NCBI GenBank assembly: GCA_963792075.1
Contig: CAWBUW010000007.1
Coordinates: forward strand, 974,429 to 1,038,428
DNA length: 64,000 nucleotides
From: an uncultured Chloroflexia bacterium
Lineage (GTDB): Bacteria; Chloroflexota; Anaerolineae; Anaerolineales; UBA4823
Direction: 5' to 3'
Shown here one piece after another: positions 27,012-38,443 of the stretch. Each line of letters begins with the position of its first letter. Position 1 is the stretch's first letter. The notes beneath the pieces are model-generated. The model was not told where the DNA came from and searched no databases. It worked only from the letters and a program-made list of their open reading frames with translations. A program made the position numbers and the translations under genes.

Positions 27012-27037
27012 AGGTTTTAAAAACCTTTAGGGTCTTT
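27001..27037. repeat. 37-nt perfect palindrome, copy 2; supplies the stop of the + gene and overlaps the stop of the - gene
   Basis: aaagaccctaaaggtttt-a-aaaacctttagggtcttt. Confidence 0.8.
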
Positions 27038-27503
27038 ACCCGTACACCACCGTCACCACCAGGTCCGCGCCTGCCGTCGAGCTGCCTACCTGGTCCACGT
27101 CGATCGTTAAATATTCCCCCGCCGCCCAGGTGGGCTGCTCCACCGTACTGCTGTAGCCCGCATTCGCCCCCGCTGCCACCTGGGGGCGGGTCGTCTGGCT
27201 CGTGAAGATGGTCGTGCCATTTTTATGCACATCCACGATCAGCGCTGCGCCCAGCGGCGCCGTCCCCACCGCCAGGTGCACTTCGCCAATCGTCACCCCA
27301 TTCCCGCTGCGGTTGTAGAAACGCAGCACGCCGCTGCCCACGCTCAGTGTACCGCTGAGCGTATGCCTTAACTGCTGCTGGTAAGCCCCTCCGCCCGCCA
27401 GCACCAGCTCCAGCCGGCCGCTGGCATCCGTGCGCAGGGGGTGTGCCAAGCCCGCCTCATCCATCCCGATGGGCATGGGTTGGTCTCGCCTCGGCATCGT
27501 CAT
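27036..27503 (-). CDS. phage-like module protein, unknown function (last gene of the module)
   Basis: 155-aa ORF. Its start abuts the stop of the upstream gene (TAGATG). Beta-rich sequence. Confidence 0.55.
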   Translation of the reverse strand: MTMPRRDQPMPIGMDEAGLAHPLRTDASGRLELVLAGGGAYQQQLRHTLSGTLSVGSGVLRFYNRSGNGVTIGEVHLAVGTAPLGAALIVDVHKNGTTIFTSQTTRPQVAAGANAGYSSTVEQPTWAAGEYLTIDVDQVGSSTAGADLVVTVVYG

Positions 27504-28241
27504 CTACGCCTCCACCCGCCGCAGGCGTTTCCGCTCCGGCATACCCCAGGGTGGGCGCTCCAGCCGCTTCTTCTTGAGCTCGTCCAGGTTGGCATCGAAT
27601 TCCTGCATGAACTGGTCGCCCAGCCCCGCCAGCACCCCCACGTGGTACGCATCGATAAACCCCGGCTCCGTACCGGCAGCCACGCTCAGCCCGCTCTCAC
27701 GGCTGCGCAGCGCATACGCCGCACCGCCCATCTCCAGCAGGTGGAAGTGGTTCTTCGGCACCGTTGAGCCGGTCACCGCGGACCCGCTCCCGTACTCTTC
27801 GGGTGTCATGCCATCGATCGTATGCTCCAGGATGCCGTAATACAGCACGTAGTCATTCGCTGCCGGGAGGGTTGCGCCGGACACCTGGAAGCCGAAATGC
27901 GGCATGTACACCAGCGGGGGATTGGTGCTCCCCGCCGCATACCATACCCACCAGTCGGTGATCTTGTTCTCCGTGGTTGTGTTGGCAACCGTGCTCGCCG
28001 CGGGCCAGTGTAAATAAGCAACGTCGTTCGGCACCGTCAGCCCGCTCCAGGTGAACTCCAGGTCATACAGCCCGCCGTTTTTGAGCTGGGTCACCTTGCC
28101 CTCGATCCGTTCGAAAACCTGCCCGTAGCGCCAGACTGCCATGCGCAGGCAGCGGTCCAGCACCGCCGCGTCCCATTCATCAGCGGCGATGTCGCCCAAC
28201 AGGTCCCGTAACCCTCCGATCAAGACACTGTAATCACTCAT
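27504..28241 (-). CDS. phage-like module protein, unknown function (appears distantly related to 30782-31459)
   Basis: 245-aa ORF on the same strand and tightly packed. N-terminal LRDLLGD...W and basic C-terminal tail patterns are shared with the 225-aa gene. Confidence 0.55.
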   Translation of the reverse strand: MSDYSVLIGGLRDLLGDIAADEWDAAVLDRCLRMAVWRYGQVFERIEGKVTQLKNGGLYDLEFTWSGLTVPNDVAYLHWPAASTVANTTTENKITDWWVWYAAGSTNPPLVYMPHFGFQVSGATLPAANDYVLYYGILEHTIDGMTPEEYGSGSAVTGSTVPKNHFHLLEMGGAAYALRSRESGLSVAAGTEPGFIDAYHVGVLAGLGDQFMQEFDANLDELKKKRLERPPWGMPERKRLRRVEA

Positions 28242-28265
28242 TCTGATGGGTTACCTTTTTAATTT

Positions 28266-29441
28266 TCACCACAGAGCAACTGTGTTAGAAGTCAAGGGTC
28301 TGGCCTGAAACGAGAGGAGAACGCCAGGGAGAATGAGAGCGCAAGATCGCATTCAAGATGACGAGGAGCTTTCGCATGCAAGCTACCAGAGCGACTTTTT
28401 TAAGTTTGCCTGCTTTGAGCAGGGATTGATAGAACTTTCGGATCACAGGATTAAAGCGAGTGGCAGATAACGTCGCCATATACAGGACATTACGCACAGC
28501 CGAACGACCACCGTGGATGCGGCGTTTGCCGGAGTGGCGACCGCTGTCATGGTTGAGGGGTGCAACGCCGACTAAGGCAGCGATCTCTTTGCGGTCCAGC
28601 GTGCCAAGCTCAGGGAGCTCGGCCAGGAGCGTAAAGGCGGTGACGTTCCCCACCCCAGGCACACTGCGCAGCAAATCCCCTTTTTCTTTCCACAAGGGGG
28701 ATCCCTGGGTGAAATCATCGAGCTCTTCATCCAGCTTACGGATGGCGGATTTCAACCAGTCCAGGTGCTCATGGATCATTTTACGCACTGGTTTTGGGGC
28801 GGTGGACAGGCGATTCTGTTCAGCAACGTGCATTTCCAGGAGTTGGCGACGTCGATTCACCAGGGCAGCCAACTCCTGCTCCGCAGGACTGGGCAGCACA
28901 GACGGCTCCGGTCGCACCGCTTCAGCAAACCGGGCTAATAGTTGGGCGTCCAAGCGATCGGTCTTGGCCAATTGGCCAATCGACTTGGCAAACTCTCGCA
29001 CCCGCCCAGGATTGACCCGGGCGACCTGGAAGCCAGCCGCATACAACTCCGCCAACGCCAGGCCTTCAAACCCACCGGTGGATTCCAACACGATCAGCGT
29101 GGGCTTCAACTCTGCGAGCTTCTCTTTCAGACTGGATAAACCAGTGGGGCTGTTTTCCACTGCCCAGGTCGCACCACTGGCGCCAGCTCCGATATCGAGA
29201 CGCTCTTTTGATACATCGATGCCCACAAATAAGGAGGTTGATACTTCAGCCATTTTTTCTGCACCTCAAAGAGCAATTTCAGCCCATTCTAGCAGAATAC
29301 GGGCTCTGTGGCCCACACAACTGTTCGGGCTGTTTGAGAAACAGGGACGGCGACCCATGCTCTGTGACGGTCTCAGAACCCAGACACGACCGGCCTGCCG
29401 CCCCCAATGCCTATCATACTAGACACAGAGTTCACAGAGAA
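28266..29441 (-). mobile_element. IS110-family insertion sequence, copy 1 (left arm of the 2.47-kb palindrome)
   Basis: Arm is reverse-complement identical to 29560-30736 except for 2 substitutions and one A5/A6 indel. There is no terminal inverted repeat. CACAGAG motifs lie near both ends. Confidence 0.8.
28285..29253 (-). CDS. IS110-family transposase (DEDD recombinase)
   Basis: [13 protein letters not shown]...LIVLESTGG...LARFA...[16 protein letters not shown]...AALVGVAP...SG, 322 aa. Confidence 0.88.
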
Positions 29442-29559
29442 GAAAAAGAAGAAGAGAGAAGACGTAGAGAACCTTCAGAGCAGAAGCTGTTTTTTTTATT
29501 TCTTTCTTACTCCTCTTACTCTCTGCGCTCTCTGTGTCTCTGTGGTAAACCTCCGGGTT
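29442..29559. other. 118-bp unique centre between the two IS110 copies
   Basis: Purine-rich left half and pyrimidine-rich right half. Contains ctctctgtg and ctctgtggt (29528-29546), which resemble the IS right-end junction. Confidence 0.6.
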
Positions 29560-37622: not shown

Positions 37623-37625
37623 CGT

Positions 37626-37874
37626 TCAGCCTCCCAGGAATGCCCGCAGTAACGCCAACAAGGACATGACACTGCTCCCCGCAGAAGCCAACCCGGACCA
37701 CATGCGGAACTGCACCACCCCCTCCGTGGCTGCACGGATGCGCGTCTCGTGGTCGGCCACCTCTTTCTCCAATACTTCCAGCCTTTGAGACAGCATCTTA
37801 TTTTCTAAGCGCAGCAGGTCTACCAGGTGGCTGATCTGCTCGCCGATCAAGCTCCCTTGTGGTTCTGGCATCAC
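37626..37874 (-). CDS. small coiled-coil protein with hydrophobic C-terminus
   Basis: 82-aa ORF between the TerS-like and TerL genes, overlapping its neighbours by a few nt. Confidence 0.4.
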   Translation of the reverse strand: MMPEPQGSLIGEQISHLVDLLRLENKMLSQRLEVLEKEVADHETRIRAATEGVVQFRMWSGLASAGSSVMSLLALLRAFLGG

Positions 37875-38413
37875 TTGCTCCCCTCATTTTGTTCTTTCCT
37901 GATCTGATCGGTCTTGGATTTGATATCATTACCGATCCCTTGGACCGTTTCTGTACCCTGGGGCGCTTTTAAGACCTGCTGTGCACGCATTAAATTCGCC
38001 AGCCGCATAGCGCCCTGGCTCAGGCTCTCTAACACCTGGATCCACAGTTTCAGGCTGGGCTGCTCATCGCTTTCCGAAACAGCCTCTCCTCCGCTGTCTT
38101 TTATAAAATCGAAGGAAAACTGGGCGTCCAGGCCGTCTTCTGCCAGGAGCCCTTCTTCCTCCAGGTCTTCCAGGTCATTTCCGTATTGGCTGGCCAGCCT
38201 GAAGATGCGCCGCATCGCCACGCGCAGAATCGAGATTTCGCCAGCCAGGTCAGACTGCGAAAGTAATTCCGTCTCGCGTTTTGCTTTGATCAGCGCCTCT
38301 TCATCTGCCAACTCCCGGCGGGCGGCGCGGCTGATCTGCCTCTGCCGGCTTTCACCCGGCAGCGCATCCTTACGGCTCTTCTTATTCCTTATTTTTGGTT
38401 TTGGATCGTTCAT
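37871..38413 (-). CDS. first gene of the phage-like module, small-terminase position; basic N-terminus
   Basis: Start chosen at MNDPKPKIRNKKSRK (ATG at 38413, AAGAGGG upstream). Function inferred from position only. Confidence 0.45.
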   Translation of the reverse strand: MNDPKPKIRNKKSRKDALPGESRQRQISRAARRELADEEALIKAKRETELLSQSDLAGEISILRVAMRRIFRLASQYGNDLEDLEEEGLLAEDGLDAQFSFDFIKDSGGEAVSESDEQPSLKLWIQVLESLSQGAMRLANLMRAQQVLKAPQGTETVQGIGNDIKSKTDQIRKEQNEGSK

Positions 38414-38425
38414 CCCTCTTAGTAT

Positions 38426-38443
38426 ATAGAACAATTGTTCTAT
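38426..38443. promoter_or_regulatory. 18-bp perfect palindrome ATAGAACAATTGTTCTAT containing GAAC-N4-GTTC (LexA/Cheo-box-like operator)
   Basis: Lies 13 nt upstream of the first ATG of the phage-like module (minus strand). A TATACT -10-like hexamer overlaps it. Confidence 0.55.

Follow-up and report, generated by a model that had tools for sequence, protein, structure and literature searches.

The window analyzed here is a stretch of 64,000 nucleotides from an uncultured Chloroflexia bacterium (contig CAWBUW010000007.1), and within it a phage head and packaging module lies on the minus strand at positions 27036-38441. The module is made up of 11 tightly packed, co-oriented genes for a small terminase (TerS), a coiled-coil protein of 82 amino acids (aa), a large terminase (TerL), a portal, a capsid fusion, a cement-like protein of 118 aa, two small proteins of 93 and 69 aa, two predicted head-tail adaptors of 225 and 245 aa, and a short fibre-like protein of 155 aa (Table 1). 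The mechanically called open reading frame (ORF) of the first gene reaches a GTG at 38509, and the extent of the module on ORF calls is thus 27036-38509. The TerL stop and the portal ATG overlap as TGATG, 4-nt overlaps join terS to the 82-aa gene and the 69-aa gene to the first adaptor gene, and the second adaptor gene abuts the 155-aa gene. A preliminary description of the window had proposed a co-oriented, overlap-coupled head and packaging module of twelve genes; the overlaps and the TerL, portal, and capsid matches given below bear out the module, and the count is corrected to 11 element genes plus a pair of IS110-family insertion sequences (IS) that had been missed. The same description placed the module between a fragment with RHS repeats, which adjoins its 5' side, and a palindrome at its 3' end, and both boundaries stand. 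The palindrome (26995-27043) is likely a bidirectional terminator, and the convergent host gene beyond it (26121-27011) encodes a PF06983 protein. The GC content of the module is 60-65%, near that of the high-GC host DNA.

The proteins were compared with 164 related loci (L001-L004 and 160 more) collected by context look-ups and by two collection scans; the compact module is found again in more than 150 loci of Chloroflexota metagenome-assembled genomes (MAGs) and IMG/VR, and the nearest relative available has 75% capsid identity. TerL matched PF17289 Terminase_6C (2.6e-7) and the terminase large subunit families phrog_5909 and phrog_9, and its translation shows a Walker A-like PRQSGKN and a Walker B-like LLSCDEAQD. 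The portal matched phrog_10963 at 1.4e-28 and is 56-64% identical to the portals of related loci. For the protein that had been assigned to TerS by its position, no direct match of its own to a TerS PHROG was obtained, and its profile found no meaningful matches among PDB sequences. A profile seeded with it retrieved 81 ORFs from 79 related loci, where they lie at the 5' end of the mapped modules or close to it, and members of this family match TerS PHROGs 1889, 9231, and 370 (13/35 and 9/35 members for the two best families), in support of the earlier assignment. The TerS of the window is without the Cys-rich zinc-finger-like extension common in many members, and L017 is degenerate at the same place. 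The 82-aa coiled-coil protein gave weak matches to phrog_5225 and to bZIP-like proteins, and homologues occupy the same position in 15 loci.

The capsid protein is a fusion. Its C-terminal half is an HK97-type major capsid domain (PF25209 Phage_capsid_4 at 3.5e-31; also phrog_29592, phrog_4523, and phrog_133), and its N-terminal ∼200 residues form a conserved domain with an invariant D97-H98 pair and S159, followed by a variable linker. The N-terminal domain matched nothing in Pfam or in a profile search of PDB sequences and gave a weak match to the protease family phrog_15531 (E 0.002). On the basis of this match and the D-H...S arrangement the domain is a possible prohead protease, and a scaffold role is presumed for the linker; the protease/scaffold-capsid fusion of the preliminary description is therefore firm for the capsid and weakly supported for the protease. 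More than 709 capsid homologues were found, mostly 55-62% identical at full length, and the named ones are from Anaerolineales or Chloroflexota.

The gene for the 118-aa protein adjoins the capsid gene in 117 loci. The AlphaFold model of this protein, with a predicted local distance difference test score (pLDDT) of 93.6, is a jelly roll, and among PDB structures it best matches chains associated with the capsids of cyanophage Pam1 (7eel_H, E 8e-5, TM 0.57) and Ralstonia phage GP4 (8h89_J). As judged from the model, the protein is probably a capsid cement or decoration protein. The family is large, with 252 clusters at 50% identity among 1.84 billion representatives. The search of cluster representatives also found the jelly-roll domain as the C-terminal domain of 187-647-aa proteins, and it may also be a knob on longer fibres. 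Profile searches of PDB sequences gave no meaningful matches for the cement-like protein or for the 93-aa protein, and these two proteins, which we considered as possible relatives, are unrelated. The 93-aa gene is found in relatives at the same place as in the window or, often, upstream of TerL. The 69-aa protein consists of a small conserved N-terminal domain and a basic tail, and in relatives the tail is replaced by HHH_5 (1.3e-6) or Rho_N/SAP (4e-7); these replacements suggest a probable DNA-binding accessory of the virion or of packaging. No head-tail connector was identified in the 93-aa and 69-aa proteins.

The 225-aa protein matched PF24175 SU10_adaptor at 2.3e-6, with 28.6 bits against the curated cut-off of 27. 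Profile searches started from the 225-aa and the 245-aa proteins converge on the same 103 ORFs, and the pairwise similarity of the two is weak (E 0.02). By these profiles we predict that the two proteins are head-tail adaptor paralogues; the adaptor profile gave no meaningful matches among PDB sequences. The 155-aa protein consists of an N-terminal anchor of ∼45 aa and a C-terminal jelly-roll knob of ∼105 residues (model pLDDT 84.5). It matched phrog_27064 at 2.5e-20 and, weakly, the minor-tail family phrog_2952, and its C-terminal domain also ends homologues with Mtd_N or collagen N-termini. The model matched tail fibre, minor tail, collagen-repeat, and Mtd_N proteins in BFVD (E 3e-8 to 1e-5, TM ∼0.6) and only generic jelly rolls in the PDB. 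A homology between the cement-like protein and this knob was considered and rejected, the similarity being weak (hhalign probability 7%, E 0.005). In L061, the closest relative (75% capsid identity), the order is adaptor, spacer, adaptor, fibre-knob protein, and then host genes, with no IS. A 169-aa ORF between its two adaptors was dismissed as spurious, being of low complexity and without homologues.

Pfam searches of essentially all ORFs of at least 100 aa in the 64 kb, together with PHROGs searches of the module, found no domains of a tail tube, sheath, tape measure, baseplate, integrase, repressor, replication protein, or lysis protein. This agrees with the preliminary description in its claim of no integrase, repressor, replication, or lysis gene. 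Its claim of a locus free of tail genes holds for the tube, tape measure, sheath, and baseplate and fails for the 155-aa protein, whose tail-fibre-tip fold means that the particle would be tube-less and not strictly free of tail-related parts. Profile and structure comparisons of the small ORFs that had been left unassigned yielded the adaptor, fibre-like, and cement-like roles given above and no homologue of a tail tube, integrase, or lysis protein. There is no PF00589 or other recombinase in the 64 kb except the IS110 transposases, no ORF for an AlpA/MerR-type regulator or a primase-replicase between the Rhs fragment and terS (nor a Pfam match to one), and no HNH match in any module protein in Pfam or PHROGs. 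Holin genes were not found in the module by either database, the fibre-knob protein is its only tail-related item, and the window copy offers no nozzle or tube candidate. The 64 kb contains no tRNA genes, and no direct repeats of at least 13 nt flank the module.

The module is conserved as a unit. The recurring order among related loci is TerS, small genes, TerL, portal, capsid, cement-like protein, small proteins, a variable slot, adaptor, and one or two small or variable ORFs, after which host genes follow on the opposite strand. The clade at 50% or more capsid identity comprises 32 complete modules whose TerS-to-adaptor span has a median of 9.9 kb, and an integrase was found in 0/11 of the close relatives in which each flank reaches at least 4 kb. 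No tape measure, tube, sheath, or baseplate domain was found among 82 ORFs located 3' of the adaptors in related loci; their matches were occasional LamG, Sipho_Gp37, and Mtd_N, one reverse transcriptase, and otherwise host genes. The four well-diverged pairs of relatives (∼88-95% nucleotide identity) gave ratios of nonsynonymous to synonymous substitution (dN/dS) of 0.05-0.2 for TerS, TerL, portal, capsid, cement-like protein, DNA-binding protein, and adaptor, which indicates that the modules are functional. Two pairs of otherwise nearly identical elements (L092 with L093, and L120 with L122) were mosaic, with a capsid dS of 0 but a TerL dS of 0.1-0.3, and point to recent recombination among co-circulating elements. 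The spread of the family is patchy: two peptide patterns gave 101 confirmed matches among 185,579 species representatives. Literature searches on GTAs (gene transfer agents), satellites, and prophage capsids found no description of such elements for Anaerolineae or Chloroflexota. We conclude that the window holds an intact copy of a large, previously undescribed family of ∼10 kb head-only elements in these bacteria.

A second conserved feature lies upstream of terS. Reading of the sequence there revealed a perfect 16-bp palindrome, TAGAACAATTGTTCTA, at 38427-38442, the 14-bp core of which (38428-38441) has the form AGAAC-N4-GTTCT; generic k-mer counting upstream of terS gave no motif. The pattern GAACNNNNGTTC has a single match in the whole 64 kb. 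We surveyed the 500 nt upstream of terS in 62 independent related loci, taking the expectation from the rest of the same loci. AGAAC-N4-GTTCT was present without mismatch in 8/62 loci (expected 0.28), with at most one mismatch in 27/62 (expected 0.97), and with at most two in 38/62 (expected 6.9), and of 19 control palindromes, made by permuting the half-sites, none had an exact match and none had more than 3 near matches. The 2.03 Mb of loci contain 24 exact sites, and about 19 of these sit at the 5' start of a module. The core is kept at capsid identities of just 34-37%, exactly in L072 and as GAAC-N4-GTTC with other flanking bases in L150; its persistence in such far relatives points to a conserved host factor rather than to element-specific repressors. 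GAAC-N4-GTTC is the LexA (Cheo) box of Gram-positive bacteria, and Dehalococcoides (Chloroflexota) reportedly uses the same LexA motif. We propose from this pattern of conservation that the box is a LexA-type operator of the whole operon, and control by the SOS response of the host would account for the missing repressor gene. The consensus for Bacillus subtilis LexA is CGAAC(N)4GTTCG, and phage GIL01 relies on the host LexA for repressing its transcription (PMC4551915).

Table 1. Features of the head and packaging module in the window
Feature	Coordinates	Strand	Basis or remark
LexA/SOS-box-like palindrome	38428..38441	.	AGAACAATTGTTCT, ends 14 nt upstream of terS ATG (38413)
TerS-family small terminase, 180 aa	37871..38413	-	ATG 38413, AAGAGGG before it
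Coiled-coil protein, 82 aa	37626..37874	-	weak matches only
Large terminase TerL, 563 aa	35931..37622	-	Terminase_6C and terminase PHROGs
Portal, ∼442 aa	34603..35931	-	phrog_10963
Long stem-loop between portal and capsid genes	34540..34593	.	core GGGGCTTTGCCCC on coding strand, then strong ribosome-binding site
N-domain/HK97-capsid fusion, 696 aa from ATG 34507	32417..34507	-	PF25209; mechanical ORF 721 aa
Jelly-roll cement-like protein, 118 aa	32039..32395	-	AlphaFold model and PDB structure matches
Terminator-like hairpin 3' of cement-like gene	31998..32032	.	inverted repeat
Conserved protein, 93 aa	31691..31972	-	no informative Pfam, PHROG, or PDB match
Protein with basic C-terminal tail, 69 aa	31456..31665	-	family alignment
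Predicted head-tail adaptor 1, 225 aa	30782..31459	-	PF24175 SU10_adaptor
IS110-family copy B, transposase ORF 29725-30717 (330 aa)	29560..30736	+	identical to copy A
IS110-family copy A, transposase 28285-29253 (322 aa)	28266..29441	-	PF01548, PF02371
Predicted adaptor paralogue 2, 245 aa	27504..28241	-	iterative profile search
Short fibre-like protein, 155 aa	27036..27503	-	phrog_27064; predicted structure
Palindrome, 24-nt arms, 96%	26995..27043	.	between last module gene and convergent host gene

The genomic setting of these modules was examined next to their content. No flank of the window is common to any other locus, and the contexts differ among the species examined. A tRNA gene adjoined none of 48 loci, and terminal repeats were absent from every related contig. 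In distant relatives (34-47% capsid identity), terS has beside it genes for a tyrosine integrase and for a DnaA_N-like or winged-helix protein, so that the family grades from ordinary integrative elements to bare modules. Homology between close pairs reaches just 90-420 bp upstream of terS. The three pairs compared for their flanks (L053/L054, L070/L083, and L055/L059) are unlike on the left side, and in the two pairs where it was examinable the right flank is shared, with a divergence similar to that of the module (84-92% nucleotide identity). MAG R24_80 holds four variants (L055, L057, L058, and L059), ∼89% identical to each other and at least two of them with different left flanks, which are either true paralogous copies or co-binned strains. 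The preliminary description had also raised the possibility of a domesticated element, which would be vertically inherited; the differing flanks, with none common to the window, the integrases of distant relatives, and the mosaic copies do not bear this out.

The two IS110 copies are 100% identical, inverted, and head-to-head, with a 118-bp low-complexity spacer, and they are intergenic, lying between the two adaptor genes. The transposase of copy A matched PF01548 (DEDD_Tnp_IS110) at 1.7e-21 and PF02371 (Transposase_20) at 8.6e-21, and that of copy B is nearly identical in sequence. Such perfect identity implies a very recent duplication or insertion or, less likely, a fold-back assembly artefact, and we take the pair to be a recent insertion. 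No element gene is broken by it, and the last two genes are now separated from the rest of the operon. Because L061 has the same end with no IS, the tail-less end was not created by the insertion. Two internal hairpins with the identical core GGGGCTTTGCCCC bracket the capsid and cement-like genes, with identical GGGGCAAAGCCCC cores at 32009-32021 and 34561-34573, and GGGGCNNNGCCCC has 3 matches in the window versus 0.23 expected. A perfect stem of at least 8 bp follows the cement-like gene in 33/98 related loci, compared with 2/144 control windows within capsid genes, and it looks like an expression feature of the element family. The preliminary description had argued from internal hairpins for long residence in the genome, and the recurrence of at least this one in relatives weakens that argument. 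A scan for sigma-70 promoters found no site in the module.

Several features vary among the relatives. Proteins encoded in the variable slot are of the pectate-lyase-like, GDSL, M23 peptidase, and LamG/metallophosphatase kinds, accessories of adsorption or wall-degrading type inside the module. Some relatives have proteins of 360-775 aa directly after the adaptor, possible nozzles; two of these families had no PDB match, and PHROGs gave one "tail protein" match among ten large post-adaptor ORFs. Two of the 82 downstream ORFs contain Mtd_N (major tropism determinant) and one a reverse transcriptase, and some elements may diversify their binding protein by a diversity-generating retroelement. 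About 18 relatives have a probable membrane protein of 116 aa just 5' of terS (family F03, L093:1004-1354), and 10 have the M23 peptidase within the module (family F10, L084:3191-3823); both are absent from the window copy and could provide holin- and lysin-like functions. The portal gene of L007, L024, L033, L038, and L062 is downstream of the capsid block, just before the adaptor, an unusual break with the usual TerL-portal adjacency. In L056, L061, L062, and L078, all from MFD long-read MAGs, the genes for capsid, portal, and TerL are broken up into 2-4 ORFs, and these splits may be long-read frameshift errors rather than pseudogenes. The remainder of the 64 kb consists of host genes (Hsp90, DAP epimerase, and histidine kinases), Rhs/PD40/WD40 arrays, and several ORFs with no Pfam match. 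In the arrays, Rhs fragments (38630-39532 and 49052-51268) alternate with lipoprotein-like ORFs with PD40/WD40 beta-propellers (39508-48782), in a stretch lower in GC (44-58%, minimum at ∼40-46 kb) than most of the window; it looks like an array of Rhs toxins or orphan modules beside the island.

Our tentative interpretation, held with somewhat less than even confidence, is that the island is an SOS-induced, capsid-forming, satellite-like element that needs other functions for lysis and perhaps for a tail. The host SOS repressor would bind the LexA-type box near terS and silence a single operon, with no repressor encoded by the element, and DNA damage would derepress the operon. The capsid fusion and the portal would then assemble procapsids, cemented by the 118-aa jelly-roll protein. 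TerS and TerL would package DNA, most likely in situ from the terS end and so comprising the element and the DNA to its right, because excision and replication genes are lacking. The two adaptor paralogues would close the portal vertex, and the 155-aa fibre-knob protein would act as a binding device. Lysis, and perhaps a tail tube, would be supplied from elsewhere, for example, by a prophage co-induced in the SOS response, such that the element would be functionally satellite-like with heads of its own. A number of observations weigh against this interpretation. In the 64 kb of genome visible there is no helper phage, tail cluster, or set of lysis genes to point to. The membership of relatives in IMG/VR is a computational prediction and no proof of encapsidation. 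The GAAC-N4-GTTC consensus is a Gram-positive one and may not be that of Anaerolineae. The TerS of the window is without the family's N-terminal GNxNAxKHGxY motif (GAPPGNxNAxKHGxYS in the alignment), a loss that may have altered packaging specificity, and the IS110 pair may uncouple or inactivate expression of the last two genes. With a fibre of their own, and enzyme accessories in relatives, the particles may adsorb unaided, which would fit a satellite and a GTA-like or self-sufficient particle alike. Lastly, with neither integrase nor replication genes the element has no evident means of moving between genomes, though its contexts differ among species.

The main rival, which we consider possible though on balance unlikely, is a domesticated, GTA-like device: LexA-controlled and not self-mobile, it would package chromosomal DNA, either at random or laterally from terS, into small particles that attach to cells by a fibre of their own, and be kept for the benefit of the host lineage. 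It would account for the absence of integrase, replication, repressor, and lysis genes from the window and from 11/11 well-flanked close relatives, and for the host-type operator at the 5' end. The strong purifying selection on the genes of relatives, the parallel divergence of module and right flank in close pairs, a GC content close to that of the host, and the encoding of its own fibre-knob protein are also in its favor, as is the pattern of differing left and shared right flanks expected from rightward in situ packaging and recombination, seen in three pairs only. Against domestication stand the patchy distribution over species representatives, a context that differs in every species examined with no synteny to the window, the distant relatives with integrase and DnaA_N-like genes as in ordinary mobile elements, the four variants in one MAG, and the mosaicism between relatives; moreover, no characterised GTA is known that encodes a head without a tail. 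A related and more speculative idea, which we think rather doubtful, is that these are phylum-specific, LexA-controlled, integrase-less islands that after DNA damage package rightward from terS into heads of their own and export themselves together with tens of kb of host DNA, an independently evolved form of GTA-like transfer or lateral transduction with no tail tube.

The remnant suggested in the preliminary description would be a temperate siphovirus-type prophage in decay that lost its tail, lysis, and lysogeny modules, for instance by IS-mediated deletion. The head type is indeed common to complete tailed phages (Mae-JY22 and IMG/VR relatives at ∼40%), IS110 copies lie inside the module, and a conserved motif has been lost from the TerS of the window. 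Decay is nonetheless largely refuted and in our estimate very improbable, as the 11 genes are all intact and coupled in translation, modules with the same genes and ends are met in dozens of independent genomes, dN/dS is low in relatives, and a conserved LexA-box-like operator is retained at the 5' end; the IS pair is intergenic, and the IS-free L061 has the same adaptor-adaptor-fibre end followed by host genes. Nor is the locus an ordinary tailed prophage, for no tail, lysis, or lysogeny/replication module is contiguous with the head. An autonomous miniature podovirus-like temperate virus, in which the adaptors, the fibre, and unrecognised proteins form a minimal tail and the host supplies replication, integration, and lysis, also seems improbable to us. 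The SU10-type adaptor match and the fibre-knob protein would suit such a virus, as would the relatives with tailspike-like beta-helix proteins, an M23 peptidase, or possible nozzles after the adaptor, and MiniFlayer, a Streptomyces satellite virus, has podovirus-like short fibres (PMC10690885). The window copy, however, has no nozzle or tube candidate; apart from the single "tail protein" match the candidate nozzle families matched nothing in PHROGs or the PDB; replication and lysis genes are absent, as are terminal repeats on any contig; and the adaptor family is also used by a siphovirus.

Most documented capsid-forming satellites come from Proteobacteria and Firmicutes, and related satellite viruses occur in Streptomyces (Actinobacteria); GTAs have been described in a few lineages, and Chloroflexota have almost no experimental phage biology. 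New here are an abundant head-only family in Chloroflexota, a close clade with no integrase, and a LexA-type box in place of a regulatory module of the element's own; a host SOS operator seems to have taken the place of the family's regulatory and lysogeny module. The family is suited to studying the spread of head-only elements that have neither integrase nor tail, and whether they drive gene transfer in Anaerolineae, and the conserved operator makes induction directly testable.

Capsid-forming satellites and GTAs, the two classes named in the preliminary description, proved the right ones for comparison. Phage-inducible chromosomal islands of the capsid-forming kind (cf-PICIs) arose from phages by retaining the head module, are defined by 11 core components, and in the same survey, in which most satellites came from Proteobacteria and Firmicutes, were recovered from those two phyla only (PMC10085698). 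Like them, the present element is a chromosomal island with TerS, TerL, portal, capsid, and head-tail adaptor genes and with no tail tube or holin genes, and its capsid fusion recalls the capsid-protease fusion of Firmicutes cf-PICI variants. It differs in having no integrase, AlpA/MerR regulator, or primase-replicase and no HNH match, and thus at most 5-7 of the 11 core components, a LexA-type box in place of an element regulator, a fibre-knob protein of its own, enzyme accessories in relatives, and a host in the Chloroflexota. The membership in cf-PICIs that had been considered therefore fails on four core components.

GTAs of the RcGTA type resemble the island in being chromosomal, phage-derived structural clusters with no integration or replication genes and an apparent regulation by the host. 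LexA influences RcGTA production, and RcGTA has head spikes and fibres; a GTA packs random host DNA, in lengths below that of its own gene cluster. Known GTAs, however, encode whole tails and stay, by vertical descent, at a single locus throughout a clade, whereas the Chloroflexota family is tube-less, patchy, found in varied contexts, and grades into integrase-bearing relatives. For the proposed regulation the nearest parallel is Bacillus phage GIL01, a mobile element with a CGAAC-N4-GTTCG-type box in a key promoter that host LexA represses (PMC4551915); GIL01, a complete tectivirus, requires the co-factor gp7, whereas binding of LexA to the island is suggested by the conserved motif.

The head itself comes from a tailed-phage lineage, as its homology to tailed phages indicates, and the island keeps everything through the adaptor. 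Among isolated phages, Microcystis phage Mae-JY22 (41 kb) has the nearest capsid, 29.6% identical across 79% of the query; it has an annotated tape measure, and the protein just after its capsid gene matches the adaptor-family profile (hhalign 85%, E 7e-6). An N-domain/capsid fusion is also found in Pseudomonas JBD68-like, Stx2, and Ralstonia phages, which like Mae-JY22 are 35-45 kb in size, and IMG/VR relatives at ∼40% capsid identity, which have ORFs of 928-935 aa, resemble complete siphoviruses. Further genes follow the adaptor in Mae-JY22, whereas the island stops after adaptor and fibre. Among satellites, the viruses of Streptomyces have TerS, TerL, portal, capsid, scaffold, and adapter genes and no primase; MiniFlayer has no integrase and makes its own podovirus-like short tail fibres, and MulchRoom has an integrase and long siphovirus-like tails resembling those reported for cf-PICIs (PMC10690885). 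Compared by description, they share with the island a structural gene set that has no primase, and their split into integrase-bearing and integrase-less forms is also seen in the Chloroflexota family. MulchRoom and MiniFlayer are free, linear virion genomes with direct terminal repeats of ∼1 kb, an HNH endonuclease, and a distal membrane protein, whereas the island is chromosomal, with no terminal repeats detected and no HNH match. Judged by these gene sets, the design of the island appears closest to that of the cf-PICIs, and especially to that of the Streptomyces satellite viruses.

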